Shown here piece after piece: positions 1 to 57,569 of a stretch of 64,000 bases of DNA. This stretch comes from a virus (lineage: Duplodnaviria; Caudoviricetes), in IMG/VR virus record IMGVR_UViG_3300031784_000003; one strand, written 5' to 3'. The notes under the pieces are model-generated. The model was not told where the DNA came from. It did no database searches and saw only the letters and a program-made list of their open reading frames with translations. The position numbers and the translations under genes were made by a program. The stretch's first letter is position 1; every line of letters begins with the position of its first letter.

Positions 1-333
1 AATAACCCAGTTTATAATGTAGGTAGTGGTACATTATCTGGCTCAACTTACGTTATCACATTAGATTTTAATAATAGTTCCATACAGACTGTAACATTAG
101 CAGGTAATACTCAATTTGCAACACCTTTAAATTATAAAGATGGTGCAATATATACGGTAATAGTTAAACAAAATGCTACAGGTGGTAATAACGTTAGTTG
201 GTTTACTCCTACATTTAAATGGGAAAATGGTACGTTTCCAGGAATTACAACAACTGCAAATGGTATTGATTTGATAACATTTATATCTGATGGAACATCA
301 TTGTATGGTTTATCAGCTAAAAACTTTAGTTAA
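1..333 (+). CDS. C-terminal end of a tail fibre/virion appendage protein (5'-partial)
   Basis: Frame +1 is open from base 1 to TAA at 331-333 (…TLDFNNSSIQTVTLAGNTQF…IVKQNATGGNNVSW…FKWENGTFPGITTTANGIDLITFISDGTSLYG…). This pattern is typical of phage fibre C-terminal beta domains. Not in the ORF track. Confidence 0.7.
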   Translation, partial: NNPVYNVGSGTLSGSTYVITLDFNNSSIQTVTLAGNTQFATPLNYKDGAIYTVIVKQNATGGNNVSWFTPTFKWENGTFPGITTTANGIDLITFISDGTSLYGLSAKNFS

Positions 334-338
334 TTTTT

Positions 339-1904
339 ATGATTACAATACCTTACGTATATAGAAAAGGGGTAACTGGTACTACAACAACTGATGTAGG
401 TGAGTTACCTGGAAAAATTTGTAACGTTAATCAAGCAATTTGGATGACGGCTAGAAGGGATACATTATCTGGTACTACAACAACACCAATACCACCTTGT
501 TTACAATGTATAACAACATGGAAAGATCAGTCAGTAAATACTGGTGTTAATAACGCAACGTTATTAAATAGTATTAGGGCAACGACACCAGGAACTAGTG
601 GTTTTCCGTGGTTTAATGTCGATTATTGGACTGGTGACACAACTACTAATAATAAACCATTTTTAAGTTTTGACTTAAAAAGTGCTAGTAGTGTTAATAG
701 ACCAAATTTTTTAGCAATTCCATACGATGCTTCGTTTTCTAAATTAACAAAACTTACTTTCTCAACACTTTTTAGATGTAGAAGAATAAACCCTAATATT
801 GTTACACAACCAGATGATGGTATTGGTGCCAATGTTGTTTTGTTCCAAAATGGAAACTCCACAACTGGTGCTAGAACAGATGGTTGGGGAATTGATATGG
901 GAGGTTCTAATGAATTGAGAGTTTGGTATTATGATAGTACCTCAACTGCGTCAGTTTGTGATTCCGCAGTTGCTAATTCAGTGATAGTACCAATAGTGGA
1001 CTGGACTGATTGGATGAGGTTAACTGTTAGAATTAGTGGGGGGACAATGCAAGCAAATATTTATAATTTAGAAAATTATCAAAGTAGTGGTAATACTTGG
1101 ATAAATGGTTGTAACAATAGTACAAACCCAGCTAGAGGTATAAAATATGGTAATATTTGGCCAAATAACCCAGATTGGTTCATTGCATCACAAAAAGGAC
1201 CTGGTTATCCAACGGCAGTTGGTGATCAAACAATTCTTAATGGTTCTTGGGATATGTTAGAATATGTATTATATGATGGTTGGTTATCTGACTCATGTGT
1301 TCAAACAATTTGGGATTATTACACGACACAATATAATTTTGCGAAAACAACTGGTAGTGCTAGTACATATACAGAAATAGGGACTACAGGAGCAACAGGT
1401 ACAACTACAACTGCACCACTTGATTTAAGTTACGACTATTATTGGAGTGGAATGATACTACCTCAGTCAACAATAAAAAAGGTTGGTGTTATAACAGAAT
1501 TACAATATTATATTGATAACTCACCTACTAATAATGTTTTAAATAATGTTAAAATATATTTAGGACACACCACTACTAGTGCATTTTCAACGGCAACTCC
1601 ATCCGAAAATTTAAGTGCATTAACAACTAATTGGACATTGGTTTATGATGGGACAGTAACATTTAATACATCACCAGGTTGGTCATCGATATCTTTACAA
1701 AATGGTTTTTACTATAATAATACTAAAAATTTATTAATTAAGTTTGAAAGTAGGGATGGGTCTCAAAGTTCGACAGGACAACCATCATTTAAATTTTCTG
1801 GGGCAACTAATACAATGGCATATAGTGGTCAAAGTGGATCTTACCCAACAGGTAACGGTGTTAGAAGTAGTAATAGACCTATCATAAAATTAGGTTTCTT
1901 ATAA
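339..1904 (+). CDS. LamG/concanavalin-like adhesin or fibre-associated protein
   Basis: Thr/Gly/Ser-rich with a LamG-type ending (GSWDMLEYVLYDGWLSDSCVQTIWDYYTTQYN). The C-terminal domain (NVKIYLGHTT…VYDGTV…GWSSISLQNGFYYNNTKNLLI) resembles domains of Bacteroidota surface proteins. Confidence 0.6.
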   Translation: MITIPYVYRKGVTGTTTTDVGELPGKICNVNQAIWMTARRDTLSGTTTTPIPPCLQCITTWKDQSVNTGVNNATLLNSIRATTPGTSGFPWFNVDYWTGDTTTNNKPFLSFDLKSASSVNRPNFLAIPYDASFSKLTKLTFSTLFRCRRINPNIVTQPDDGIGANVVLFQNGNSTTGARTDGWGIDMGGSNELRVWYYDSTSTASVCDSAVANSVIVPIVDWTDWMRLTVRISGGTMQANIYNLENYQSSGNTWINGCNNSTNPARGIKYGNIWPNNPDWFIASQKGPGYPTAVGDQTILNGSWDMLEYVLYDGWLSDSCVQTIWDYYTTQYNFAKTTGSASTYTEIGTTGATGTTTTAPLDLSYDYYWSGMILPQSTIKKVGVITELQYYIDNSPTNNVLNNVKIYLGHTTTSAFSTATPSENLSALTTNWTLVYDGTVTFNTSPGWSSISLQNGFYYNNTKNLLIKFESRDGSQSSTGQPSFKFSGATNTMAYSGQSGSYPTGNGVRSSNRPIIKLGFL

Positions 1905-1971: not shown

Positions 1972-4797
1972 ATGCCCGCATCTGTAGATGATATTAAAGA
2001 ATATTTAGAAGGTTACGATGAACAAAAATATATTGTTGGTGTCGAATCTTCTTACTATGAGAATAAAGTATATCTTATTATACACGATCCTGAAACAGGT
2101 AAACGTATAGAAAAACACAAATTCACACCATTTTTATGGATGAAGAGTTTAGATTTAACTAAACTGTATGGTGGTGATAGAAAAGAAATCAAAACTAAAA
2201 TTAAAGAATATAAAATTAAATTTATCCCTTTATCAATAGAAGATGAAAGTGGTGAATCAGTTTCTCGTTTAGAAAATGGATATAAATTTTTAGTAAGATC
2301 AAAAGGTTCTTACGGAGATTTATTAAATTTCTTTAAGAAAGGTAAAATGGATGTGTATGCAGATGAAAATAGAGATAATTTTCTAACTGTAAGTCCTACC
2401 GAACAATTTCTTATCCAAACAGGTAAAAGATTATTTAAAGGTATGGATGAATATAATGATGTTCATAGACTTTCTTTTGACTTAGAGACAACTGGTTTAG
2501 ACCCTAAACATAGTAGAATATTTCAAATAGGGGTTAAAGATAATAGAGAATTCCAACATGTTCTATCTATCGATGGGGATGACGAAGAAACATTACTTAG
2601 AAGAGAGGCAGAGGCGATAACAACATTCTTTAAAATAATTCATTATTTAAAACCAGCAATTATTGCAGGTTACAATTCAGAAAACTTTGACTGGTATTTT
2701 ATTGCGGAAAGATGTAAAATATTAGGTTTAGATATTAGTAAGATTGCCAAAACATTAGGTAATGTTCCATTTTATAGAAAAACCCAAACACTTAAAATGG
2801 GTCCTGAGATGGAAAATTACGAACAAACTCACATGTGGGGTTATAATATAATGGATGTATATCACGCAGTTAGAAGAGCACAAGCAATTAATTCTTCTAT
2901 AAAAGAGGCAGGACTTAAATATATCACAAAATATTCTAAGGCAGCAAAACCTAATCGGGTTTATATACCTGGGGATAAAATAGGTAAGGTATACGCAGAT
3001 AAAGAAAATGAATATTGGTTAGATGATAATAATGGTAGTTGGGGTAAAGTTATAGATGACGAACAACCAGAAAACACTTTAAAAGTTAAAGGGTGTGATA
3101 TTGTAGAAAGATATTTAATTGATGACTTATGGGAAACAGAAAAGGTTGACAATATCTTTAATCAAGCAACTTTTTTATTATCTAAAGTTTTACCTACATC
3201 ATTTATGAGGGCTTCTACTATGGGTACTGCAGCAACATGGAAATTACTTATGTTAGGTTGGTATTACAGAAGTGGTATTGCTATCCCACATACTATGCAA
3301 TCAAAAGGTTTTATAGGTGGTTTATCTAGATTATTAGAAGTAGGTTTTAGTGAGAATGTTGTAAAGTTTGACTTCGCATCACTTTACCCATCCATTCAGT
3401 TAACCCATAATGTATTTACGGATTGTGATGTTATGGGTGCGATGAGAGGGTTGTTACAATATAACTATGATTACCGTAACCTATATAAAGAACTGAAGAA
3501 TAAATACGCATCAGAAGGTGATGAAGAAAAATCTGCATATTATGATAAGAAACAATTACCTTTAAAAATTCTTAACAATGGTATGTTTGGATCTATTTCT
3601 GCACCTAATGTATATCCTTGGGGTGATTCAGATATGGGTGAGAAGATTACATGTACTGGTAGACAATATCTAAGACATATGATTAGATTTTTCTCACATA
3701 AGGGTTTTAAACCATTAGTGGGGGATACCGATGGATTCAACTTCTCCGTCCCTAAAGATGTAGATAGATTCGTATATACATCAAATGGTAATCACCATTT
3801 CAATAAAATAGGTAAAACATATAAAGGTATGGCTGCAGTAGTTGCAGAATACAACGATAAATATATGAAGGGTGTTATGGGGTTAGATGTAGATGAGATA
3901 TGTGAGTCAACTATAAACTTAGCCAGAAAAAATTACGCAGATTTAATAGATGGAAAGGTTAAATTAGTAGGTAATTCTATAAAATCTAAAAAAATGCCTG
4001 TATATATTTCAGAATTTATAGATAAGGGTATTAGGTTACTTTTAGATGGGGATGGGTTAGGATTTGTAAATGAATATTATGAAACAATAGAAATGATTTA
4101 TAATCAAGAAATACCATTATCTAAAATTGCAAATAAGGCTAGAGTAAGAATAAGTTTAGATGCGTATAAAAAGAAAATGAAAACTACTAATAAATCTGGT
4201 GGTTCATTGGCTAGACAAGCTCATATGGAACTTATAATGAAAGAAAATTTAAATGTGAATTTAGGTGATACAATATATTATGTTAATGTAGGTACAAAAA
4301 AATCACACGGAGACGTTCAAACTAAAGCTCATAGTAAATTTACTAAAAAGGAAACTGAATTATATTATATTAATAATGGTAAAATGCCAGATCCTACTAA
4401 GATAGATATTATTGTAAATTGTAATTATATTCCAAATGAATTAATAGAAAACGATCCTAACGCAACTGGTGAATATAATATAGAAAGATATTTAGACGCA
4501 TTTAATAAAAGGGTTAAACCATTATTAGTGTGTTTCGATCCATCAGTAAGAGATGAGATATTAATTACATCACCATTAGAAAGAAAATATTTTACTTCAC
4601 AAGAATTGACATTAACTTCTGGCAAACCTTTCAATGAAAGTGATCAAGATAAGTTAGAAGATTTATTAACTATTACCGATGAAGAACTAGAATTTTGGAA
4701 TAGGATAGGTGTATCCCCAACTTATATGTTTGAAGATTACGGTATTGAGGATGAATTCTCATATGACATAAAAACCCAAAGGTCTATAAGTCAATGA
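1972..4797 (+). CDS. polB: Family B DNA polymerase with 3'-5' exonuclease
   Basis: ExoI DLETTG, ExoII YNSENFD, ExoIII YLIDD, motif A DFASLYPS, motif B KQLPLKILNNGMFG, motif C GDTDG. Confidence 0.97.
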   Translation: MPASVDDIKEYLEGYDEQKYIVGVESSYYENKVYLIIHDPETGKRIEKHKFTPFLWMKSLDLTKLYGGDRKEIKTKIKEYKIKFIPLSIEDESGESVSRLENGYKFLVRSKGSYGDLLNFFKKGKMDVYADENRDNFLTVSPTEQFLIQTGKRLFKGMDEYNDVHRLSFDLETTGLDPKHSRIFQIGVKDNREFQHVLSIDGDDEETLLRREAEAITTFFKIIHYLKPAIIAGYNSENFDWYFIAERCKILGLDISKIAKTLGNVPFYRKTQTLKMGPEMENYEQTHMWGYNIMDVYHAVRRAQAINSSIKEAGLKYITKYSKAAKPNRVYIPGDKIGKVYADKENEYWLDDNNGSWGKVIDDEQPENTLKVKGCDIVERYLIDDLWETEKVDNIFNQATFLLSKVLPTSFMRASTMGTAATWKLLMLGWYYRSGIAIPHTMQSKGFIGGLSRLLEVGFSENVVKFDFASLYPSIQLTHNVFTDCDVMGAMRGLLQYNYDYRNLYKELKNKYASEGDEEKSAYYDKKQLPLKILNNGMFGSISAPNVYPWGDSDMGEKITCTGRQYLRHMIRFFSHKGFKPLVGDTDGFNFSVPKDVDRFVYTSNGNHHFNKIGKTYKGMAAVVAEYNDKYMKGVMGLDVDEICESTINLARKNYADLIDGKVKLVGNSIKSKKMPVYISEFIDKGIRLLLDGDGLGFVNEYYETIEMIYNQEIPLSKIANKARVRISLDAYKKKMKTTNKSGGSLARQAHMELIMKENLNVNLGDTIYYVNVGTKKSHGDVQTKAHSKFTKKETELYYINNGKMPDPTKIDIIVNCNYIPNELIENDPNATGEYNIERYLDAFNKRVKPLLVCFDPSVRDEILITSPLERKYFTSQELTLTSGKPFNESDQDKLEDLLTITDEELEFWNRIGVSPTYMFEDYGIEDEFSYDIKTQRSISQ

Positions 4798-5901
4798 TTT
4801 ATTTAAATTTTCTGCCTCTAACGCTTTATTTTCTAGTTGTTTAACATTAGAAAGGTTAGTTAAACGCGCATCTAATTGTTCTAATAATTTTAACTGTTCT
4901 TCTTTACCTTCATTAAGTAAACTATCAAAATCCATAGTTAATTCAGCTTCAGGAACTTTTAATGCCCCACTAAATTTTCCCCTAACTCTACCTAAAGACT
5001 CTTTAAATAATGCGGTTAGATATCTTCTAACCCATATTCTTGTTGGTTCATTTAAATCTGAATATCTTAATTTAGATAAAGGTACATCATTAGGTAATTT
5101 TATAATATCAGGATTTTCTTCCAAACATTTATCTCTTTCATTATTAGAATCATAATAATGATACCATACTTTAGTACCTGCCAAACCTAATTGTCCGCCA
5201 ACTAAACCTGTTGATGCAAAAGATAATCTACTTCCTGGTATTGGCATAAGGTGTAATAATCTAGTCCCATTTGGTCCTGCAGTAACTTTATACGATAATT
5301 CACTTCTAAGTAATTTAGATTTAAGTTTAAAATCACTTGCTCTAAGTAAAACATCATATGCTGGTGCAACATAAAAACCACCATTACCTAATCCACCACC
5401 TTGACCCCAACCAGCGTAAGGTACTTGCCCAAATCCACCACCGAATCCATAATCACCAAATCCCGCAAACGAATATAGTGCGTGATCAATAGAACTTGGT
5501 GTTAACCAAAGTATTTCATTTAGTTCTCTACCCGCAGGAATTTGGTATACTTGTTGATTTTTTACTATTGTTACATAATCTTTTTTAAGTTCCCAAGGAC
5601 CTCTTTGTTGTAAACCAACTTGTTTAGAATACGCATAAGAAAAATTACTTTCGAAATCTAATGATCTTGTAGTTAATGCAAATGCGATATCTGTTTTATC
5701 AACTTCTTTACCTAATAAAGAAGACCATTGATTTTCAATTAACCAATCCTGAACTCTTTGTGCATAATCTTCTATTGCAGTCTCCAATAAAGAATTCATT
5801 TGATCCCAATCCAACTCTATTTTACGAATAGGTGCACCTAATCTATGTTTAATTTGAGTGAATAATTCATTTTTTAAGTTATCATTAAGAGAATTTGGCA
5901 T
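4759..5901 (-). CDS. gp13: Neck protein, T4 gp13-like
   Basis: N-terminal IKHRLGAPIRKIELDWDQ and C-terminal ALFKESLGRVRGKF…LLNEGKEEQ match the gp13 pattern. ATG at 5901 is preferred over TTG at 5907. Confidence 0.8.
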   Translation of the reverse strand: MPNSLNDNLKNELFTQIKHRLGAPIRKIELDWDQMNSLLETAIEDYAQRVQDWLIENQWSSLLGKEVDKTDIAFALTTRSLDFESNFSYAYSKQVGLQQRGPWELKKDYVTIVKNQQVYQIPAGRELNEILWLTPSSIDHALYSFAGFGDYGFGGGFGQVPYAGWGQGGGLGNGGFYVAPAYDVLLRASDFKLKSKLLRSELSYKVTAGPNGTRLLHLMPIPGSRLSFASTGLVGGQLGLAGTKVWYHYYDSNNERDKCLEENPDIIKLPNDVPLSKLRYSDLNEPTRIWVRRYLTALFKESLGRVRGKFSGALKVPEAELTMDFDSLLNEGKEEQLKLLEQLDARLTNLSNVKQLENKALEAENLNKSLTYRPLGFYVI

Positions 5902-20419: not shown

Positions 20420-23400
20420 ATGAATAGATTATTTTCAGAAAAAGAAGTTAAAAAATTAAAAAATTTTATAGGTAAAAGTCTAATTACTGAACAAGGTGTA
20501 GGTAGAAGACTTGCAGATGCGTTAGAAGACGCAACATCTGCCGTTTCTAAGGCAATTAAAAATGTTGACCCAAAATTAGCCACAAACTTTTTAAATACTG
20601 AGATTAAAAGTTTTGATGATATTTCAAAACATTTAAACGATTATAAATCTATATGGAAAGCTATGGGTATAGATTGGGATTATACGAATAAGGCAATTAC
20701 AAATTTTAAAAAATGGTCAGATACTGGATTTTTAAAAACCGCAGATGAAAAGTTAATTTTACAAGTTATTAATGACTTACCAACTGAAGGGGATTTAAGA
20801 GGGATTGTTTTTGACTTATGGAAAAAAAGTAAGGGTACATACACACCAAAAAAACCTAAATCTAAATCTGTTGTTGTTAAAAACAAAAAAACTGGACAAA
20901 ATATAATTCAAAAAACAGAAAACAATCAAGTAAAAAATTATGAGGTAGATAATAACGGAAAATTATCTGAAATAAGTGATTCTGAATTAGATTTAGAACT
21001 AGATTCTAAAGAAAAACCAGAACAAGTTGCGGGTGTAAAATTGGATGACATACCAAAAGATGAATGGGATATTATTGATGCGTCATTTAAAAAATATGGT
21101 TTTGAAAATGATTGGGGTTTTGACCCTAACACAGGAGAACCTGTATATGTTATATTGCAAATAGGTGGAGAAAAAGTAAAATTTAGTTTAAATAAATATG
21201 GTCCTGAAGCATATGATAATCTTAAAATTAGTGATGATAATTTAATAGAAAAATTTAATGATGAATATGAAAAAACTTTTGAGAATACCAGTTGGATGGA
21301 TAAACCATCTAGGGAAGATTGGGTTAAAAAAGAAAAAATATTAAAGGACCCTAAATTAAGGGAAAAATATGTTAATAGATATGATGTTTCATTAGGTGTT
21401 AAATTGTGGGCAGATGAACCTAATGGTGACTGGGGTATTTGGGTTATCGCAAACCCTACAGAAATAAAAAATTATAGGAAAACAATCACACCAGAGGATT
21501 TAAAAAATGCTATATTACATACAGTTTATCACGAATTGACTCACGTTAAACAAAAACCTGGTCAACATAGTAATTTATCGTATGGTTCTGGCGAATTTAA
21601 AACTACTGAACATGCTTGGACTTATTTAAATTTTAAAAGAGATAAATCCACTAAAAGATATTCTTTTGATGAAAAAGAAATATTTAACTTTTGGGCATGG
21701 CATAAAGAAGATCCTGTTAAAGCGGAAGAACTTATTGCAGATTTTGGTGACGAAAAAGGGATTGACACTAGTTTAGATTATAGTTGGAGAGACGATTTTT
21801 ATGAGTGGGGGAAAGAAAAAAATATTTTTGACGAAAAATTTATTACAAAAAATAAAATTAAAAAACAAATTGATTCATATACTTACAAAAGAAACCTTTT
21901 TAGTGATGACGTTAAAGTAAGATCATTAAAATTGAGTATTGATAGATTTTCTAAAAGTGATAGTAGATTTAAAAAAATAAAAGAGACTACAGATAATTTA
22001 AACGATAAAGAATTTTTAAAATTTATAAATGATAATATTAATATACCTGAAATTGAGAAGGTTGTAAATGATGCTGCATATGAATTGAGTTATTGGAGTA
22101 ATGTTAAAGAAATAGAAGCCGAATTTGGGGCTAATATTAAAACTTTAATGGAATTAGGTACTTTAGAAAAAAATAAAGGTTTTGCCACTTTCTTAGTGGA
22201 TTATTTAAGAGGTACAAATAAATCTCAAAAACTGGCAGATATTGATGTAGCAAAACAAAAAAACTATATGGATACTATGCATCCTATGGTAAAAACTGTA
22301 AAAAAAATAGATAGTAGTGTAGATTCATTAATAGAATTTTTCAAAACATATATAAATAAATTTTTAAATAAAAATGTTACTGATAAAGTAAAATTAGAAA
22401 AAGAATTAACTGATGTAGGTGAGTGGGTTAATAATATACCTGAAGATTTTTTCGCAGTATTAGGAAAATTAGAAAACAGATGGAAAAAGGTATACCCTGA
22501 ACAAGCAAAAAAGATTGAGAAGGATTTATATAAACAGGCATACAATTTAATTTCTAAAGGTTATCCAGCGTTATTACCATTTATTGTTAGTGGTTTATCT
22601 GATGATGAAACTGAAGATAATAAAAATAAAAATGAATCTATAGTTTATAAAAAACATTATATAACTGAATCTTTTAAAAAAACTTATTCATTCGATTGGG
22701 ATGACAATATATTAAAAATGCCAACGAGAATTCATTTAGAATATAAGGTTGGTGGTTTACACTGGGTACCAGTTTCAGTGTCTACAGAACAATTTAGATC
22801 CATTAGACATAAAGTAGGGACAGAATTTAGGTATTTAAATGACAATGTATTAGACGCATTTAAAGATTTTAGAGAATATGAATCATTTATTAGAGATGTT
22901 AAATATGCGTTAGACAGTAGAAATTTTGGGCCTAGTTTTAATGACTTTAAAGAGGCGTTAATTAATGGTGAAGATTTTTCTATTATAACTGCGAGGTCAA
23001 ATTCACCCCTATCTTTAATTGATGGTATTAAATTATTGATAGATAAAAACTTTTCTTATAGAGAAAAAGATGAGATGGAAAAAAATCTTAATGGTACATC
23101 AATCAATGACTATCTTAAAATTCAAGATTATCATCCAGTATCTTCAAAAGAATTTTTAAAAAGTTTTAATTTAGATTTAAGTGGATCTAATCCTGAAAAA
23201 GGTAAAGAAATCGCCTTCAGAAGTTTTGTTGACCGTATAGTAAAACAAATAGACAATATAATAGACGATCCTAATTTTGAAGGTATAAGTGTGGGCTATA
23301 GTGACGATGATTTAAAAAATTTAGAGATAATAGAAAATTTAATTAGAAAAGAATTGAGTATGAAATACCCTAAAATAAAATTTAATGTCTATGACACATC

Positions 23401-23446
23401 TGACCCAAATAATCCGAAAAAGAAAAGAATTGTAATAGAAAAATAA
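20420..23446 (+). CDS. Multidomain (polyvalent-like) protein: shared helical domain + HExxH peptidase-like domain + C-terminal HAD-fold domain
   Basis: YHELTH at 21530-21544 with distal EIEAE at 22109-22123. The C-terminal FDWDDN…IITARS…GYSDDD matches HAD motifs I, II and IV. Confidence 0.7.
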   Translation: MNRLFSEKEVKKLKNFIGKSLITEQGVGRRLADALEDATSAVSKAIKNVDPKLATNFLNTEIKSFDDISKHLNDYKSIWKAMGIDWDYTNKAITNFKKWSDTGFLKTADEKLILQVINDLPTEGDLRGIVFDLWKKSKGTYTPKKPKSKSVVVKNKKTGQNIIQKTENNQVKNYEVDNNGKLSEISDSELDLELDSKEKPEQVAGVKLDDIPKDEWDIIDASFKKYGFENDWGFDPNTGEPVYVILQIGGEKVKFSLNKYGPEAYDNLKISDDNLIEKFNDEYEKTFENTSWMDKPSREDWVKKEKILKDPKLREKYVNRYDVSLGVKLWADEPNGDWGIWVIANPTEIKNYRKTITPEDLKNAILHTVYHELTHVKQKPGQHSNLSYGSGEFKTTEHAWTYLNFKRDKSTKRYSFDEKEIFNFWAWHKEDPVKAEELIADFGDEKGIDTSLDYSWRDDFYEWGKEKNIFDEKFITKNKIKKQIDSYTYKRNLFSDDVKVRSLKLSIDRFSKSDSRFKKIKETTDNLNDKEFLKFINDNINIPEIEKVVNDAAYELSYWSNVKEIEAEFGANIKTLMELGTLEKNKGFATFLVDYLRGTNKSQKLADIDVAKQKNYMDTMHPMVKTVKKIDSSVDSLIEFFKTYINKFLNKNVTDKVKLEKELTDVGEWVNNIPEDFFAVLGKLENRWKKVYPEQAKKIEKDLYKQAYNLISKGYPALLPFIVSGLSDDETEDNKNKNESIVYKKHYITESFKKTYSFDWDDNILKMPTRIHLEYKVGGLHWVPVSVSTEQFRSIRHKVGTEFRYLNDNVLDAFKDFREYESFIRDVKYALDSRNFGPSFNDFKEALINGEDFSIITARSNSPLSLIDGIKLLIDKNFSYREKDEMEKNLNGTSINDYLKIQDYHPVSSKEFLKSFNLDLSGSNPEKGKEIAFRSFVDRIVKQIDNIIDDPNFEGISVGYSDDDLKNLEIIENLIRKELSMKYPKIKFNVYDTSDPNNPKKKRIVIEK
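20480..20848 (+). repeat. Copy 1 of a duplicated ~123-codon domain (copy 2 at 27986-28354)
   Basis: Hand alignment gives 23 differences in about 123 aa (~80% identity). An identical 44-bp stretch occurs at 20543-20586 and 28049-28092. Confidence 0.9.
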
Positions 23447-27889: not shown

Positions 27890-30052
27890 ATGAAAAAAAG
27901 ATATACTAATTTAAATGAAGAAGTGAATAGAATTAAATCTCTATTTACTGAAGAAAGGTTATATGGTAATTTAAAAGAAAATAAATTATTAACTGAGCAA
28001 GGTATAGGTAAAAAACTTGCAGATGCGTTAGAAACTGCAAGTTCTTCTGTTTCTAAGGCAATTAAAAATGTTGACCCAAAATTAGCCACAAATTTTTTAA
28101 ATTCAGAAATCAATACTTTTGATGACTTAGCGAAACATTTAAACGATTATAAATCTATATGGAAAGCTATGGGAATTAATTGGGATTATGCGAATGACGC
28201 AATTTTATCATTTAAAAAATGGTCAGATACTGGATTTTTAAAAAGTGCAGACGATAAATTAATTTTACAAGTTATCAATGATTTACCTGTGGAAGGTGAT
28301 TTAAGAGGTATGGTATTTGATTTATGGAAAGATAGTAAAGGAAAATATACCCCACCTAAATCAAAAAATCAGACTACTATTGTTAGTAAATCTAATAAAG
28401 GTGAAAATGTTATCCATAAAGTAGAAACTGTTGGTGGTAAAGAAAAAATTGAGACTTACTCAATAGAGAGTGATGGGATTAAAAAAGATGACGGTTACGA
28501 CCCAAATAGGGCTAGTGAAGAAGTTAATTCACATTTTGATGGGGATGATTTAGTTTCTGGTGGAGGAAGTAGTAAAATCACTACTGATGTGTTAAATGCT
28601 AAAGGTAATCCAGATAATATAAAAGGTGAAATTATAAATGCTATTGAGGAAGGATTTAATAAAATATCAGGTAGAGGTGGTAAACAAATGACTTCTGATG
28701 AAATTGTTGAACAGATTAAAAATGGGGGAGTTTTAATGGTAAAACGATCTGATGGTTCTTATAGAGTAATAAATACTATAGAATTAATAGAAATGGAAAT
28801 AGATCAAAATTTGGATATAACTAACATAAAAAGTATTGGTAAAAAAGATGTAACACCACCAGTTAATGTTCCACCAGTTAAAGATGGTGGTGAATCAGTA
28901 GATGTACCTACAGACGGTGGTAGAAATGGAAGTAAAAAATCTAAAAATAATTTTTCTTCAAATATTGGTAACATAATTGGACAAGGTTTCAGATATGTGT
29001 TCCCAACAGTTAGTGAAATATTAAAACGTGTATCTTTATTAGGTCCAGGTAGTAAATTTTATTCTAAACAAAGATTTAGTATTGTCGATTCGAGATTTCC
29101 AACAGAAGGAGGTTATAATAAACGAGCTAACAAGATTTTGAAGGGTTTGTTGGAAAACCCTGCAAGAATATTGTTTGTAGAACAAACTGCTTTAATTACT
29201 ATTGTTGGTATAGCAAAATCAATCGAAAGAGGAACACTACCTAAAGATGAAGAAGCTATAAATACTGCAATTGCAGATTATAAGAATAGTGAAATATGGA
29301 AATACAGTGTACCGTATTTATTAGCGGGTACACTTGCCGATGTCTATCAGAGGATTATTAATTTAAGAAAAATTAGTTACGCTTCTTGTAGAAGTAAAGC
29401 AGAAAAAAAATTAAATCCTAATGATCCTCTTTATGAAATAAAGAAAAAGGAAGTTGAAGTGGAAATTGAAGCGTGTAAAGATGAGGTAGACTCATTTTTT
29501 GATAAAATTGATGCTTTTGGAAAAGACTTTACTAAATTTAAAAAAGAATTTGCCGACCTTAGTAATATAGATCAATGGGATCAATCAAAAATAGAAAAAT
29601 TTTGTGAAGAAGATTTAGCGGATAAACAAGAGGTTTTGAAAAATTTGAGGGTTAGTTTAACTAATTTAGATGATGAAATAAAAAATCGATTTAATACAGA
29701 TGACATTAAAAAAAGAGAATATATTGTTACTATAATTAATACTTTGAAGAACGTTATGCCTGCGTTACCTGAATTACCTACTCCAGAAGAAGTAATTAGT
29801 CAATTAATGCCTAAAACGGAAATTAATGGTAAAAAAATAACCCCTTTAGATATACAAGGGTTAGAAACTAAATTAAACGCAGCATGTGCTGAATACTGGA
29901 ACAAAAAAAGAGATGTTCAAGATCAAATAGTTGATCCAGATGATTATGAACAACCAATAGATACAATTAATGTTGACCCTGACACTAAAGAAAGTTTAGA
30001 CGCAGATTTTGGTATGATAGAAGTAATTGTAGAACCAATAGAAATAGTTTAA
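27890..30052 (+). CDS. Mosaic hypothetical protein (tag of ORF 24108 + domain of ORF 20420 + helical C-terminus)
   Basis: NLNEEVNRIKSLFTEERLYGNLKE followed by the LLTEQG duplicated domain. Confidence 0.8.
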   Translation: MKKRYTNLNEEVNRIKSLFTEERLYGNLKENKLLTEQGIGKKLADALETASSSVSKAIKNVDPKLATNFLNSEINTFDDLAKHLNDYKSIWKAMGINWDYANDAILSFKKWSDTGFLKSADDKLILQVINDLPVEGDLRGMVFDLWKDSKGKYTPPKSKNQTTIVSKSNKGENVIHKVETVGGKEKIETYSIESDGIKKDDGYDPNRASEEVNSHFDGDDLVSGGGSSKITTDVLNAKGNPDNIKGEIINAIEEGFNKISGRGGKQMTSDEIVEQIKNGGVLMVKRSDGSYRVINTIELIEMEIDQNLDITNIKSIGKKDVTPPVNVPPVKDGGESVDVPTDGGRNGSKKSKNNFSSNIGNIIGQGFRYVFPTVSEILKRVSLLGPGSKFYSKQRFSIVDSRFPTEGGYNKRANKILKGLLENPARILFVEQTALITIVGIAKSIERGTLPKDEEAINTAIADYKNSEIWKYSVPYLLAGTLADVYQRIINLRKISYASCRSKAEKKLNPNDPLYEIKKKEVEVEIEACKDEVDSFFDKIDAFGKDFTKFKKEFADLSNIDQWDQSKIEKFCEEDLADKQEVLKNLRVSLTNLDDEIKNRFNTDDIKKREYIVTIINTLKNVMPALPELPTPEEVISQLMPKTEINGKKITPLDIQGLETKLNAACAEYWNKKRDVQDQIVDPDDYEQPIDTINVDPDTKESLDADFGMIEVIVEPIEIV
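27986..28354 (+). repeat. Copy 2 of the duplicated ~123-codon domain
   Basis: See copy 1 at 20480-20848. Confidence 0.9.
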
Positions 30053-52725: not shown

Positions 52726-52736
52726 TGATTTTTTTT
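52704..52736. terminator. Bidirectional intrinsic terminator between convergent genes
   Basis: AAAAAAATCACTAC-AATC-GTAGTGATTTTTTTT. Confidence 0.88.
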
Positions 52737-53298
52737 ATGTATTAAATTTTTTAGAATAAAGATATTTTATCATTTCAATATCCTTTTCAGTAAAATTATT
52801 ATTGTGATCTAAAATAGAATTATTTTCTTTTTCATAATGAGAAAAACCTAACATATGAAACATTTCGTGTCTAATTGTATTAGAAAATGATTTAAATTCT
52901 TTATTTTCTACAATATCTATATGTATGTAAACACTTTTAATTTTATGGTTTATAGGTTCTGTAAAAGTTATACCTATATTAACTAAATCGTATTTTGACC
53001 ATTTAAACATATTGGCAAACTCTGTATCGGATAAGAAATATATAACCACATTAGCAGAATCTTTATTTTTAACCATACTTATATTAATAGGTTTAATAAG
53101 TGGTTTAAAAATTTTAATAGTTTCAACAACATCCAATGAGTCTTTTTTGGTGTACTTACCGTATAAACATATTTTAATATCTTTATACCATCTATCCCCA
53201 CCTTCTGTTGCTAATAAAAGTTCTTCTTTAGTAAAAAGACTTTGAGAAAAAAACCAAATAGGGTTTAAAATTAATAGTGCAATTATTAAATTTTTCAT
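52735..53298 (-). CDS. Secreted metzincin-type zinc metalloprotease
   Basis: ATG 53298 gives the signal-peptide-like MKNLIIALLILNPIWFFSQS; zinc motif HEMFHMLGFSH (HExxHxxGxxH); NSIL at the Met-turn position. Confidence 0.8.
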   Translation of the reverse strand: MKNLIIALLILNPIWFFSQSLFTKEELLLATEGGDRWYKDIKICLYGKYTKKDSLDVVETIKIFKPLIKPINISMVKNKDSANVVIYFLSDTEFANMFKWSKYDLVNIGITFTEPINHKIKSVYIHIDIVENKEFKSFSNTIRHEMFHMLGFSHYEKENNSILDHNNNFTEKDIEMIKYLYSKKFNT

Positions 53299-53322
53299 AG
53301 TTGTTTTGTATTTATAATAAAA

Positions 53323-53353
53323 CAAATATATAATTTTTTCTTAAATAAACAAA
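53323..53353 (-). promoter_or_regulatory. Bacteroidota-type promoter for the metalloprotease
   Basis: Minus strand: TTTG at 53353-53350, a 19-nt spacer, then TATATTTG at 53330-53323. Confidence 0.72.
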
Positions 53354-53367
53354 AATTATTAAAAAAT

Positions 53368-55293
53368 ATGAAGAATCTTTTTGAGGAGTTACAAAGAATA
53401 AAGTCTTTAATGGTTTACGAACAAGGTGTAAAGATTAATGAAGTTAGTACTGCATCCGTTGAAGGTGGTGATACTGATGAAGGTGATGGTGGTAGTGAAA
53501 ATCAAAATAAACCTGCGGATAGTGAAAACGAAAAAAATAATGTAGAACAAGAATCAAAAACTGAAGGTGGTAAAGAACCAAGTAAAAAGAATTGTGTGTC
53601 TATTACAAATACTGAGGTATATAAAACTGAAAGTGATGTAAATAAAGAAGTACCTGAAAAGTTCTTTCAGAAGTTTAAACAAAAAGTGGAAGAACAGTTT
53701 GGTTTATTCGCGGATGGTGAATTTACTATTGAAGATATCAATGTATTTGGAGGTGCTAGTAACTATTGGAAGGGTAGTAATAGTAATAAATTTCCTGCGG
53801 TAGAACCTAAGTATTGTAATGAATATGATGTTAACGTTGGTATAACTTCATTAAAAACTTGGTCGTCTGGTTGTAAAGGTTTTGGTAAAACCGAAAAAAA
53901 AGTTTATGATAAAAATTCTTCAGGTAAAAAAAGTAATGAAGATTTAGCAAAAAGAAGGGCACAAAAAGTTTTAGATGAATTAACTAAAAAAATTGTGACT
54001 TTTGCTCAACAAAATAATATTAAAGTTCCAGCCGATTTCAAAAAAGAAATAAAAAATATTACTTCTGGTTCCATTTATACTGAAGATAAAACAGATACTC
54101 ATTCAGTAGTAGCAGCAGCAATTAAAAGTGGTGAATTAAATGCGGGTCAATTAGTAATGATAGACGCAGTTTTATGTTTTACACCATACAACCCATGTCC
54201 TAATTGTATGATTAGAGATCCAAAAACTAAACAATGTAAATGTAAAGAAGGGTTAACAGAAAAAGATGGTAAATGTTTTTGCCCTAATGGAAAAGAGGTG
54301 GATGAAAATTGTGAATGTAACAATTGTCCAGATCCTTGTATGACATTTAATAAAGAAACAAAAAAATGTGATTGCCCTGAAGGTATGACATTTAATGAAT
54401 CTACAAAACAATGTGAATGTCCTAAAGGTTTCAAAAAGACAGATGATTGTGAATGTTTGAAAGAAAAAGAAAGAGAATGTCCTGATAAATGTCAAAAACG
54501 TGATGAAAATGGTGATTGTAAATGTCCTAATGGTATGACATTTAATGAAGAGACACAAAAATGTGATTGTCCTGAAGGTAAAATTAAACCTACTGTAGAT
54601 GCGTGTAATTGTGTAACACCAAAACCACCATTAAAATGTGGGTATAATGAGAAAAAAGAAGGGGGTAGAGGTACTAAACAAAATAACTTTGTTGCAGCAA
54701 CAGTTAAAAGTGGATTCCCTGTTGGGGAAGGGGATACGGTAACTATTTCATTTGATTCATTGGTTGTTCCTGACGCATTTTATGTTAAGTATGGTGATCA
54801 AGAGTTCTTTAGCGGATTTATGGGAGATGTCTATAATGATGAATATAGACAAGTTGCTTTAAGTGTTAAAGAAAAGAAAAAAATGTTACCATTACAGTCT
54901 AAATATGTTAAAGATATTGTTAAAGATGAATTAAATGCTGGTGATAACGATTATAGTGGGATGGATAATGTTGTAAGGAATTTTGTTGGTGAGTTAGTAA
55001 TGTATAAACGACAAGATGGTTTATTAGAGAGTATAAATGAAGCAATTAAATCTGAAGGGGGAAAATTGACAGTTAAAGATATCTTTAAAAATGGTGATGC
55101 TGAGGCAGAAAAAATAACTGATGATATTATTAATAGTGGTAGTATAAAAGATAACATTGTTAGATATAAACAAATAATGAAATCTGGTACATCATTTAAA
55201 ATTACCAAAGAAGAAGAGAATTTCCAACTGATAATAATGGTATTTTCACCATTAGATAGAACAATATTTACGATGGAAGTTAAATGTGAATAA
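53368..55293 (+). CDS. Tagged protein with an OmpA-like domain and three 8-Cys repeat units
   Basis: MKNLFEELQRIKSL tag; INVFGGAS…NEDLAKRRAQKV OmpA-like motif; 24 Cys in 54196-54612. Confidence 0.75.
   Translation: MKNLFEELQRIKSLMVYEQGVKINEVSTASVEGGDTDEGDGGSENQNKPADSENEKNNVEQESKTEGGKEPSKKNCVSITNTEVYKTESDVNKEVPEKFFQKFKQKVEEQFGLFADGEFTIEDINVFGGASNYWKGSNSNKFPAVEPKYCNEYDVNVGITSLKTWSSGCKGFGKTEKKVYDKNSSGKKSNEDLAKRRAQKVLDELTKKIVTFAQQNNIKVPADFKKEIKNITSGSIYTEDKTDTHSVVAAAIKSGELNAGQLVMIDAVLCFTPYNPCPNCMIRDPKTKQCKCKEGLTEKDGKCFCPNGKEVDENCECNNCPDPCMTFNKETKKCDCPEGMTFNESTKQCECPKGFKKTDDCECLKEKERECPDKCQKRDENGDCKCPNGMTFNEETQKCDCPEGKIKPTVDACNCVTPKPPLKCGYNEKKEGGRGTKQNNFVAATVKSGFPVGEGDTVTISFDSLVVPDAFYVKYGDQEFFSGFMGDVYNDEYRQVALSVKEKKKMLPLQSKYVKDIVKDELNAGDNDYSGMDNVVRNFVGELVMYKRQDGLLESINEAIKSEGGKLTVKDIFKNGDAEAEKITDDIINSGSIKDNIVRYKQIMKSGTSFKITKEEENFQLIIMVFSPLDRTIFTMEVKCE
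54196..54612 (+). repeat. Cys-rich protein repeat region
   Basis: Three units of C-x2/3-C…CxC…CxC…CxC, with an internal CP.GMTFN..T..C 15-mer. Confidence 0.85.
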
Positions 55294-55353: not shown

Positions 55354-55737
55354 ATGGCAAAGACTAGGTATATAAATATTGATTTCCCTTTTAGGGATGG
55401 TGATAATGGGTTTTATTTTCAGATGAATAAAACAGATAAAGACGCTATTAGGGCGGATTTATTACATCTACTTTTAACTAATAAAGGTGAAAGGTTATAT
55501 CTCCCTGATTTTGGTAGTGATTTAAAAAAATACATTTTTGAACCAAATGATTCAATCACACATGAACAAATTAGAGATAATTTAAATGATACAATTAAAT
55601 TATATATACCTAATTTAATCATAAATGACATATCATTTAGAAATGATGATATCGAAGAATTAATAATTGTGGAATTAACCTATACTGTTACAGAAGGAAC
55701 TTTCACTAGTACAGATACAATAACTTTAACATTCTAA
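55354..55737 (+). CDS. gp25: Baseplate wedge/sheath initiator (T4 gp25-like)
   Basis: LLLTNKGERLYLPDFGSDLKKYIFEP. Confidence 0.93.
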   Translation: MAKTRYINIDFPFRDGDNGFYFQMNKTDKDAIRADLLHLLLTNKGERLYLPDFGSDLKKYIFEPNDSITHEQIRDNLNDTIKLYIPNLIINDISFRNDDIEELIIVELTYTVTEGTFTSTDTITLTF

Positions 55738-55739
55738 TT

Positions 55740-57569
55740 ATGGCAAAGAAAATAGATTATAATGCACGTAATTTCTCAGATGTAAGATTACAACTTATAG
55801 AATTCATACAAAAATATTATCCAGAAATATTTTCAGATTTTAATGACGCTTCTGTCGGTATGATGTTATTAGAGTTAAACGCTGCGGTTGGGGATATGTT
55901 ATCATTCCATACCGATAGAATGTTTAATGAGACTCAAATAAATTACGCACAAGAAAGATCTTCATTATTAGAACTGGCAAGAACATTCGGTTTAAATGTA
56001 CCAGGTAAAAGACCTAGTATAACTATCGTTGATTGGACAGTAACTAATATACCTGTAAATGGTGATACATTTGATATAAGTTATGCTCCAAAAATACTAA
56101 AAGGGTCACAAGCAACTGGTGCGGGTAAAATATTTGAATTACAGGAAGACTGTGATTTCGCATCTCCGTTTACGACAGGAGGTATCCCTAATAGATTGGT
56201 GATTCCAAACATAGATGGGAGTGGTATTATACAAAATTATTCTCTTACTAAAAGAGAAATTATGTTAAATGGTATCACAAAAATATATAAAAAAGTATTG
56301 GGTAGAGAAGATTATAGACCATTTTTAGAAATAATCTTACCAGAAGATAACGTATTGTCGATAGAAAATATTATAACTAAGGAAGGTACAAATTTTGTAA
56401 ATAACCCAACAGAAGACGAATTTTCTAATTTTGATTTAAGTTGGTATGAAGTTCCTGCATTGGCACAAGGTGAAATATATATTGAGGATGAAAATGCCGT
56501 TTCAGATAGATCTGGTGTAGTAGTCGGTAAATGGAAAAATGCTCCAAAAAGATTTATACAAGAATATACTGATAATGGTTTCTGTAAAATCATATTTGGT
56601 GCTGGTGATACAGATATTTCCGAATTAAATGATTTTGTTGGTTGTAGAGGACAAATTGAAAGAATAGGTAAAGTAGTAAATAATTTATCTTTGGGTGAGA
56701 TTCCACAAACTAATAATACAATGTATGTTAGATATAGAATAGGTGGTGGAGAAGATTCTAATATTGGACCTAATACCATCACATCTTTGGGGACTACAGG
56801 TGTAATCGTCAATGGTGATGATAATAATTTAAATAGAATTATAAAAAATAGTATTACAGTTAATAATCCTATTCCTGCTTTAGGTGGTAAAGAAGAACCA
56901 TCAGTAGAAGAAATAAGAAATTTAGTTAGATATAATTTTTCTGCACAAAATAGGTGTGTAACAATCAAAGATTACCAAAGTAGAATACCACTTATGCCAG
57001 GTAAATTTGGTGTACCTTTTAGAACTGGTGTGTGGGAAGAAAGAAATAAAATCAATGTTTACATTTTAGCGTTAGATTCTAGTAGTAAACTTACAACAGA
57101 ATCCACATCAACACTAAAACAGAATATTGCAGATTATTTAGCGGATTTTAGGATGATAAATGATTATGTTACTGTGAAAAATGGTAGGGTAATTAATTTA
57201 GGTTTTGAAATAGATGTTTTCGCAGATAAAGCGGTACCAAAAGGTGAGGTGATATCAGGTGTAATTTCATCAGTAACACAATATTTTGATATAAATAAGT
57301 GGCATATGGGTGATAATGTATATCTATCACAATTAGTTGAAAATATCAATAATGTTGCAGGTGTATTAAATGTTACTGATCTTAGAGTTTATAATAAAGT
57401 AAATGAAAATGGTAAATATTCATTAAACGAGATTGCTCAACCATATATCGATGATACAACTAGACAAATAGATTTGTTAGGTAGATATACTTTATTTGGT
57501 GCTCCAAATGCGATGTTCGAAATTAAATATCCAAATAAAGATATTAAAATCACTATTTCTACTTCATAG
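55740..57569 (+). CDS. gp6: Baseplate wedge protein (T4 gp6/baseplate J-like)
   Basis: DFNDASVGMMLLELNA, AQERSS, YRIGGG, GGKEEPSVEEIR, RCVTIKDY. Confidence 0.9.
   Translation: MAKKIDYNARNFSDVRLQLIEFIQKYYPEIFSDFNDASVGMMLLELNAAVGDMLSFHTDRMFNETQINYAQERSSLLELARTFGLNVPGKRPSITIVDWTVTNIPVNGDTFDISYAPKILKGSQATGAGKIFELQEDCDFASPFTTGGIPNRLVIPNIDGSGIIQNYSLTKREIMLNGITKIYKKVLGREDYRPFLEIILPEDNVLSIENIITKEGTNFVNNPTEDEFSNFDLSWYEVPALAQGEIYIEDENAVSDRSGVVVGKWKNAPKRFIQEYTDNGFCKIIFGAGDTDISELNDFVGCRGQIERIGKVVNNLSLGEIPQTNNTMYVRYRIGGGEDSNIGPNTITSLGTTGVIVNGDDNNLNRIIKNSITVNNPIPALGGKEEPSVEEIRNLVRYNFSAQNRCVTIKDYQSRIPLMPGKFGVPFRTGVWEERNKINVYILALDSSSKLTTESTSTLKQNIADYLADFRMINDYVTVKNGRVINLGFEIDVFADKAVPKGEVISGVISSVTQYFDINKWHMGDNVYLSQLVENINNVAGVLNVTDLRVYNKVNENGKYSLNEIAQPYIDDTTRQIDLLGRYTLFGAPNAMFEIKYPNKDIKITISTS

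Follow-up and report, generated by a model that had tools for sequence, protein, structure and literature searches.

A leader-bearing phage protein with OmpA-like and EGF-like modules in an uncultured T4-like giant phage: a candidate head-packaged ejection protein

The DNA analyzed here (the window) is a stretch of 64,000 nucleotides from IMG/VR record IMGVR_UViG_3300031784_000003. It is AT-rich, with about 29% G+C and a phage-like composition, and its source is an uncultured giant (jumbo) T4-like freshwater phage. We examined the open reading frame (ORF) at 53368-55293 on the plus strand, which comprises 641 codons and encodes a protein of 641 amino acids (aa), designated P0001, at one copy per genome. 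The ratio of nonsynonymous to synonymous substitution rates (dN/dS) showed that P0001 is a real gene under purifying selection, constrained yet fast-evolving. A preliminary description of this ORF had listed an N-terminal tag, an acidic linker, the motif N.DLA.RRA..V, and three units of eight cysteines, and all of these were found at the positions assigned to them. The features of the gene and its surroundings are given in Table 1. An AlphaFold2 (AF2) model of P0001 built from 71 sequences reached a mean predicted local distance difference test score (pLDDT) of 78.

Table 1. Parts of P0001, segments of its AF2 model, and neighboring features, with nucleotide positions in the window
Feature	Residues (aa)	Nucleotides	Strand	Remarks
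Whole gene P0001		53368..55293	+	single copy, 641 aa, homologs from metagenomes
Leader	1-25	53368..53442	+	amphipathic helix M-x-N-L-x-E-x-L-x-R-[IM]-K-x-L-M-V-Y, then [IL]23-x-E25
Acidic low-complexity linker	26-72	53443..53583	+	isoelectric point (pI) 4.05, pLDDT about 25, dN/dS about 1, 24% identity
N-domain, OmpA-like fold (modeled)	73-269	53584..54174	+	~58-residue insertion between GGASN (128-132) and N190-x-x-L-A-x-x-R197-A198
Cys-rich stalk	270-424	54175..54639	+	26 Cys, flanked by invariant C270 and C424
8-Cys unit 1	277-317	54196-54318	+	
8-Cys unit 2	320-363	54325-54456	+	
8-Cys unit 3	371-415	54478-54612	+	
C-domain	425-641	54640..55290	+	beta-sandwich (GOLD / SID1-N-terminal / PPC type) with helical insert at ~aa 500-600
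AF2 model: helix	2-13			
AF2 model: disordered	14-72			pLDDT about 25
AF2 model: alpha/beta domain	74-271			pLDDT about 85
AF2 model: short beta-hairpins	277-415			pLDDT 75-85
AF2 model: beta-sandwich with helices in 500-600	421-641			pLDDT about 92
Metzincin-like gene		52735..53325	-	signal-peptide-like start, HExxHxxGxxH (HEMFHMLGFSH); divergent neighbor upstream of P0001
GTATTTATAATAAA, near match to ATATTTATA(T/A)A box		53308..53321	+	possible late promoter (weak); read by eye, no statistical test
gp25-like baseplate wedge gene		55354-55737	+	PHROGs E 3e-20; directly downstream of P0001
gp6-like baseplate wedge gene		55740-57569	+	PHROGs E 2e-19; follows the gp25-like gene

Conservation within the P0001 family is highest in the leader, with a mean identity of 70% (the N-domain retains 29% in the distant group). 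Its tag, MKNLFEELQRIKSLM, is common to P0001 and the N-termini of ORFs 24108, 27206, and 27890. A hidden Markov model (HMM) of the tag detected four N-terminal carriers in the window and nine in a relative, G001 (IMGVR_UViG_3300042868_007959, 253,879 bp), whose P0001 homolog is 77% identical; the E values were 1e-9 to 1e-13, and the carriers are otherwise unrelated ORFs. The family alignment and the conservation counts given below rest on 71 homologs. In 70 of them, [IL]-x-E occupies positions 23-25, with a free middle residue (N, T, D, I, M, or V). P0001 itself has I23-N-E25, and a second candidate cleavage site, L4-x-E6, is present within its leader. The prohead protease of T4 cleaves after L/I-x-E. 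We predict that the leader is a capsid-targeting propeptide and that a T4-type prohead-protease site follows E25. Proteases of this type cleave after Glu (PMC5694885), and the T4 capsid-targeting sequence (CTS), MKTYQEFIAE, which is cut once beside the tag, brings any fused protein into the head (PMC8442874).

Head genes of the gp21/gp22/gp23 type are known from the relative G001 and lie outside the 64-kb window. G001 encodes a Peptidase_S77/gp21 homolog (252783-252082, 82 bits), an acidic scaffold, and a Gp23 capsid protein (206 bits) in the T4 order. Homology to T4 gp23 placed the predicted maturation site of the G001 major capsid protein (MCP) at ...ALLNE/STSADSSG (cut at the slash), and both this site and the predicted sites of the G001 scaffold, LNE/VA and LNE/ST, resemble KINE/VSTASVEG in P0001. 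The propeptide of the MCP (250650-248887, minus strand) also contains G-L-E-H-L-K-Q-I-R-S, which is loosely like the leader core E-E-L-Q-R-I-K-S; the tag HMM gave it no score, and the likeness may be due to chance.

A profile search run exhaustively over 1.84 billion representatives yielded 173 matches. Among the distant relatives of the N-domain, a leader variant is followed by [LIV]-x-E-Q in 36 of 43 proteins; the aligned Glu occurs in 41 of 41, [LI] at position -2 in 38 of 41, and Gln at +1 in 37 of 41. Many phage relatives of the C-domain start with leaders of 10-15 residues, such as M-x(4)-F-T-Q-W-V-N-E/A, that follow a pattern like F-x-x-W-V-N-E and are reminiscent of the T4 CTS. Within the window, ORFs 20420-23446 and 27890-30052 have in common a domain of ~180 residues (63% identity), which starts right after L-x-T-E-Q. 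Because these two ORFs share their payload from L-x-T-E-Q/G onward behind different leaders, the leader boundary is a recombination joint, with payload and leader shuffled between neighboring genes.

Two other accounts of the N-terminus were considered and rejected. Double-glycine bacteriocin-type export leaders have a similar helix, L-x-E-E-L-x-x-I, but no G-G is conserved in the leaders studied here and [LI]-x-E-Q is conserved instead. A mis-called start hiding a signal peptide was discarded as well, since there is no in-frame start codon upstream and Met1 is conserved. The metagenomic proteins P0114-P0242 form a large phage superfamily of one design without a Pfam name, namely a leader (L-x-E-E-x-x-R-I-x-x-L...), [LIV]-x-E-Q, a GGASN...N-x-x-L-A-x-x-R-A domain, and varied C-terminal domains, the commonest of which carries an H-x-C-N...N-G motif. 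In G001, the most Cys-rich ORF (4413-5195, minus strand; 15 Cys in 260 aa) starts with the leader variant MKKRVIKLTESQLSKIVKSVLNE, then A, and leader-bearing proteins in general may be enriched in cysteines.

P0001 contains 30 Cys in all, 26 of them from C270 to C424, and its Cys content of 4.7% compares with a window median of 0.58%. Each of the three units consists of C-P-x(1,2)-C followed by three C-x-C. In the three-unit alignment, all eight Cys were invariant and the consensus was CPDxCM...CKCPEGMTFNExTxKCxCPxG...CEC. A 45-nt (15-aa) tandem sub-repeat, MTFN-x-x-TK-x-C-x-C-P-x-G, was observed within unit 2 at 54338-54429 (2.0 copies, 82% matches), and the 8-Cys unit is itself built of C-x-C-closed hairpin sub-repeats. 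No other ORF of the window or of G001 contains C-x-C...C-x-C arrays. The related unit that had been reported in ORF 24108 proved to be a partial look-alike, CQC...NEETGLC...C, with four Cys and not a full unit. In a survey of the 71 homologs, the repeats were conserved and the repeat zone always held 2+8n Cys (solely 10, 18, 26, or 34), with one, two, three, and four units in 1, 24, 17, and 29 homologs, respectively. Whole units are therefore gained and lost; homolog P0008 carries a recent tandem duplication of unit 2.

With the preceding Cys counted, the spacing in each unit is C-x(2-7)-C-x(2-3)-C-x(8-9)-C-x-C-x(10-13)-C, as in epidermal growth factor (EGF) modules, whose fold has 1-3, 2-4, and 5-6 disulfides. 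The EGF_2 signature, C-x-C-x(2)-[GP]-[FYW]-x(4,8)-C, was matched exactly once, by C349-E-C-P-K-G-F-KKTDD-C361; the other hairpins have M or L for F/Y/W. No Pfam EGF family was detected at E <= 1 with P0001 or at E <= 0.1 with the 71 homologs, a word-based search that used only the Cys region retrieved nothing beyond P0001's own family, and the family profile gave a weak alignment to an LDL-receptor EGF pair in the PDB (E 0.45). Other proteins matched profile positions ~262-405 at E 1e-16 to 1e-4, scores that Cys-rich composition can inflate. When 33 of these were scanned with Pfam, the hits were cEGF (8), FXa_inhibition (7), EGF_3 (6), EGF (5), EGF_CA (5), and TIL (5), and most of the proteins begin with a signal-peptide-like sequence as judged by a crude test. 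The repeat region modeled alone reached a pLDDT of 80. Its 50 best Foldseek neighbors, which are weak (best E 7e-3), were all disulfide-rich extracellular arrays (EGF, LE, TNFR, and furin-like), among them Pfs25, uromodulin, NELL, LRP2, netrin, EGFR, and 4-1BB; zero zinc fingers were present, and the VIA tool gave Z <= 2.7 for the same model. On the basis of these profiles and models, the disulfide-type EGF class is the best assignment for the 8-Cys units, and the term eukaryote-style used in the preliminary description is a fair one.

The same cysteines could be read in another way, with P0001 as a cytoplasmic, non-virion protein of the infected cell whose units bind zinc or another metal at two Cys4 sites each and whose leader is a docking helix. 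This reading, which we consider distinctly unlikely, can draw on the synthesis of P0001 in a reducing cytoplasm without a signal peptide, on the division of eight Cys into two Cys4 sites, on the likeness of C-P-x-C to a zinc knuckle, and on the failure to find an encoded oxidase in G001; metal binding had also been allowed for in the preliminary description. However, zinc-finger proteins are missing from the Foldseek neighbors just listed, the profile matches belong to the EGF, cEGF, TIL, and FXa families, and the repeat-matching proteins mostly start like secreted ones. The spacing of C-x-C by hairpins of 9-13 residues is the EGF pattern, with the one exact signature match, and the cellular homologs of the C-domain are secreted. 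An argument that 2+8n, not being divisible by 4, speaks against zinc was dropped: C270/C424 are better taken as partners of C76/C640, since relatives that lack repeats also conserve both pairs, and this leaves 8n, which fits either chemistry. In G001, neither Erv1/ALR nor DsbA was found, only a thioredoxin, the Erv1/ALR search being without a positive control. Any disulfides would therefore need to form outside the cytoplasm.

The N-domain was compared with known structures by means of its AF2 model (pLDDT ~85). VIA-align superposed it on Acinetobacter baumannii OmpA (3td3/3td4/3td5) with a Z of 8.0-8.1, a level that the VIA tool flags as borderline, and an rmsd of 3.9-4.5 over 115-119 of 119-123 residues. 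When residues 73-271 were compared with 48,161 PDB representatives, every match to the region in the top 50 was an OmpA-like peptidoglycan-binding domain (best Z 8.0, 116/120 residues), including OprF, RmpM, FopA, TagL, Pal, MotB/PomB, PorE, and anchors of T4SS/T6SS. The best BFVD neighbor (E 5.5e-6) was a phage protein with the UniProt name 'OmpA-like domain-containing'. By sequence, P0001 fell below the threshold of Pfam PF00691 OmpA (13.4 bits vs a cut-off of 27.2; E 0.1; 30 residues only). Only 2 of the 71 homologs reached E 0.1 with this model, none of the 43 distant N-domain relatives reached E 0.01, and a Pfam scan of both sets gave nothing significant. Alignment with five Escherichia coli OmpA-like domains by hhalign covered 24 columns, comprising only the N-x-x-L-x-x-R-A helix (P 0.004, probability 8.5%). 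In this motif helix, N190-E-D-L-A-K-R-R-A-Q-K-V, R197 and A198 are invariant and N190 and L193 occur in at least 90% of the 71 homologs; the invariance also extends to the 43 distant relatives. We accept the modeled fold as OmpA-like, as the preliminary description had proposed.

The function usually associated with this fold is a separate matter. Asp271 and Arg286 of A. baumannii OmpA together hold diaminopimelate (PMC12108004). In the motif alignment, the position of the diaminopimelate-binding Asp (G-[HY]-T-D) is an invariant Ser in the N-domain (G128-G-A-S131-N132), in which the Asn is also invariant, and the 58-residue insertion follows the GGASN strand end. Moreover, the N-domain is the fastest-evolving folded part of P0001, with 29% identity where the flanking genes have 85-95%. 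Because of this substitution and this rate of change, canonical peptidoglycan binding by the N-domain is doubtful, and the cell-wall anchoring suggested in the preliminary description is not upheld.

The C-domain is the most confident part of the model (pLDDT about 92). It had been called a beta-rich domain, which holds for the sandwich (~425-500 plus 606-641) and not for the helical insert of ~100 residues. The domain resembles GOLD, SID1 N-terminal, PPC, and collagen-binding domains (VIA Z 6-7.4, a generic fold-level likeness). MORN-repeat proteins contain a module 40-44% identical to it, immediately preceded by a signal peptide of bacterial type (MKNILLLLILFTGLVSWGQ...); genome contigs scanned for this cellular MORN-fusion homolog gave no match. 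The C-domain is a mobile module, which also stands behind short CTS-like leaders in other phage proteins, and the simplest inference is an extracytoplasmic binding role.

All 73 full-length homologs of P0001 were unnamed metagenomic proteins from a collection of 5.8 billion, encoded on contigs of at most 287 kb. Searches of 50,697 cultured-phage records with tblastn and megablast found no relative of P0001, of two distant N-domain relatives, or of the 19-kb region. PHROGs and PDB sequence searches with P0001 alone gave no match, no paralog of any of its three domains was found in the same genome, and the ESM Atlas returned solely unnamed viral or Bacteroidota clusters (<=0.91). The only taxonomic label obtained from protein-cluster membership was one 'Promethearchaeota' entry, probably a mis-binned one. 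Across 27 IMG/VR loci, the identity of P0001 was 36-87%, compared with 84-100% for the ribonucleotide reductase (RNR), gp25, gp6, and a UvsX-like gene. In a codon analysis against three relatives, dN/dS was 0.18-0.30 for P0001 vs 0.03-0.08 for its neighbors at the same dS, and 0.1-0.4 for each folded domain vs ~1 for the linker, which is disordered and evolves neutrally. At the protein level, P0001 changes 4-6 times faster than its neighbors, which points to an arms race against a host partner that varies, and not against peptidoglycan, which is invariant. The occurrence of P0001 alleles of 37% identity inside backbones that are ~90% identical suggests allele replacement by recombination.

The gene order RNR, small ORF, metzincin (minus strand), P0001, gp25, gp6 was found in the 27 IMG/VR loci wherever the contig extends that far. 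Farther upstream of P0001 in the window lie a DnaB-like helicase-like ORF and an RNR-like ORF, both recognized by reading the sequences by eye, with no family search. The nearest cultured baseplate genes are just ~27% identical and come from Microcystis phage Mel-JY01 and the Flavobacterium 'immuto' phages. The metzincin-like gene adjoins P0001 in every one of the 27 loci that reach it and is also fast-evolving (43-79% identity vs 92-95% for the adjacent RNR); the two genes may be functionally linked or may merely occupy a common hyperplastic spot. The box ATATTTATA(T/A)A was seen 10-50 nt upstream of many structural or tagged genes (ORFs 5960, 16718, 23518, 31028, 33828, 55354, and others), and the T4 late box TATAAATA, which is distinct from it, also precedes some genes. 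The box ATATTTATA(T/A)A is probably the late promoter of this phage group.

This setting bears on the main rival explanation, according to which P0001 is an externally exposed adhesin of the tail, the baseplate, or the capsid decoration. Its N-terminal part would anchor on the virion, and the EGF-like stalk would hold out the beta-sandwich at the C-terminus as a head that binds a receptor or a glycan. After lysis, the disulfides would form in the oxic water, and the leader would act as a tag for assembly or for a chaperone and not as a head-loading signal. P0001 stands immediately upstream of the gp25-/gp6-like baseplate genes in all loci reaching them, a late-type box precedes it, and the genes for the tail tube and the hub chaperone flank the other tagged genes. 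The anchor-stalk-head design, the variation of stalk length by whole units, and the CBM/GOLD/PPC-like C-domain are typical of adhesins, and fast evolution is also typical of receptor-binding proteins. In contrast, the supposed tip of P0001 is its best-conserved folded part and the supposed anchor its most variable, the reverse of what phage fibers show. The invariant Glu with [LI] at -2 in more than 100 diverse leader-bearing proteins suggests proteolysis, the leader-bearing neighbors have enzyme-like or toxin-like payloads, and P0001 showed no similarity to any known baseplate or fiber protein in PHROGs and the cultured-phage searches. Weighing both sides, we regard an adhesin as a serious alternative, albeit one with well under an even chance.

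The embedding of tagged genes in the tail and hub gene block would also suit a cargo of the tail lumen or hub, loaded by the leader in the manner of effectors of extracellular contractile injection systems (eCIS) and released into the periplasm on tail contraction. Modules of the periplasmic type would suit release at the tail tip, and N-terminal leaders that load cargo into the tube are known from eCIS and Photorhabdus virulence cassettes (PVC). However, the lumen of a T4-like tail tube is filled by the tape-measure protein, the conserved Glu cleavage motif would be left without a role, and such loading is not known from any phage. We consider this explanation very improbable.

The reading we favor, at about even confidence, is that P0001 is virion cargo, namely a head-packaged, protease-trimmed ejection protein acting in the host envelope. 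A head-loaded and processed cargo is preferred because of the leader logic, the protease context, and the payload shuffling, and action in the envelope rather than in the cytoplasm because of the module set. The 25-residue amphipathic leader would dock P0001 on the scaffolding core during prohead assembly, as the CTS does for T4 internal proteins, and the gp21-type prohead protease of the phage would then remove it after I-N-E25. The mature protein of 616 residues would be kept in the head and would exit via the tail at infection. According to the model, the mature chain consists of beads: the disordered acidic linker, the OmpA-like domain, a thin stalk of three EGF-like modules (1-4 in relatives), and the beta-sandwich/helical head. 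Because all three types of folded module are normally extracytoplasmic and no thiol oxidase was found in the relative G001, P0001 is probably held reduced in the infected cytoplasm. Its disulfides would form, and its final state be reached, only outside that cytoplasm, whether in released virions or in the periplasm of the next host, where it would bind an envelope component. The notion of an ejected protein in the preliminary description is compatible with the leader and its T4-type cleavage motif.

Several points weigh against a head-packaged ejection protein. In sequence, the 25-aa leader does not resemble the T4 CTS, which it exceeds 2.5-fold in length, and mature P0001 is acidic (pI 5.2), unlike the basic internal proteins of T4. 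A tail location would explain equally well why the gene stands directly upstream of the baseplate genes, in each locus that reaches them, and why the other tagged genes are found among those of the tail. A multidomain protein of 69 kDa would have to traverse the tail tube. As to the evidence itself, the motif [LI]-x-E is short, the prediction of the MCP cleavage site comes from T4 homology and was made in the relative G001 and not in the source genome, and disulfide formation is deduced from the modeled fold class only. Packaging into the virion and cleavage are likewise deduced from sequence, for a family that is uncultured.

A more specific version of the favored reading, which we think unlikely, is a one-way 'oxidative folding ratchet'. 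Reduced, Cys-rich P0001 would be stored in the head and ejected into the periplasm, where the disulfide machinery of the host would lock the stalk into a rigid rod. The locking would pull P0001 from the virion and attach its OmpA-like foot and its beta-sandwich head to components of the envelope, where it might, for instance, brace the injection channel or block rival phages. If this were true, P0001 would represent a class of ejection proteins that act in the periplasm and are made of eukaryote-style modules. It would also belong to a large, so far undescribed cargo system of uncultured T4-like jumbo phages in which the leader serves as the address.

If P0001 is indeed head-packaged cargo, the principle of the T4 internal proteins, one address tag for many swappable cargoes, would extend to envelope-directed cargoes. 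P0001 also carries EGF-like repeats, which are rare in bacterial viruses. Tandem arrays of such disulfide repeats typify the extracellular proteins of eukaryotes, and here they occur in a protein made in a reducing cytoplasm. For an uncultured phage group, the leader with its predicted cut site offers a tag that is portable and open to experiment, and the fast evolution of P0001 next to a highly conserved backbone makes it a likely site of conflict between phage and host. If P0001 were an external adhesin instead, it would represent a new stalk design for phage fibers.

Parts of P0001 can be compared with known proteins. With the tandem EGF arrays of eukaryotes (Pfs25/Pvs25, LDL-receptor EGF-AB, matrilin, NELL, and uromodulin), the stalk shares C-x-C-P-x-G-hydrophobic...C hairpins, EGF-like Cys spacing, a tandem rod-like arrangement, and profile matches to genuine EGF-family proteins. 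It differs in having a quantum of 8 Cys (~43 aa), no Pfam EGF score, and no calcium-binding motif, and in being phage-encoded and made without a signal peptide. The predicted N-domain superposes over nearly the whole domain on OmpA-like proteins (A. baumannii OmpA 3TD3/3TD5, Pal, MotB, RmpM, and TagL) and keeps the N-x-x-L-[AS]-x-x-R-A-x-x-V helix with its invariant Arg, whereas it is sub-threshold in Pfam, carries the insertion of ~58 residues and the Asp-to-Ser change, lacks a signal peptide, and evolves fast.

Among phage proteins, T7 gp14/15/16, P22 gp7/16/20, and the E proteins of SPN3US/phiKZ resemble the proposed role of P0001 in that they are stored in the head, in some cases after trimming behind Glu by the prohead protease, and leave with the DNA. 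Some of them work in the periplasm, and T7 gp16 has a cell-wall-directed domain. They have no relation to P0001 in sequence or fold, however, and form channels or carry enzymes; neither EGF-like disulfide repeats nor an OmpA-like domain in a known phage ejection protein was found in the literature searched. P0001 can also be compared with the T4 internal proteins IPI, IPII, IPIII, and Alt with their CTS and gp21. The leader of P0001 has ~25 residues instead of 10 and is unrelated to MKTYQEFIAE, and the payload is an acidic 69-kDa protein of extracytoplasmic-type modules and not a small basic DNA-associated protein or an enzyme acting in the cytoplasm. In both systems, a short N-terminal leader ending in [L/I]-x-E stands on unrelated, fast-evolving proteins, the phage group has a protease of the gp21 family together with a scaffold like gp22 and a capsid protein like gp23, and payloads are swapped at the leader boundary. 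By this analogy, the pattern of leader and payload in P0001 matches the build and evolution of the T4 internal proteins.

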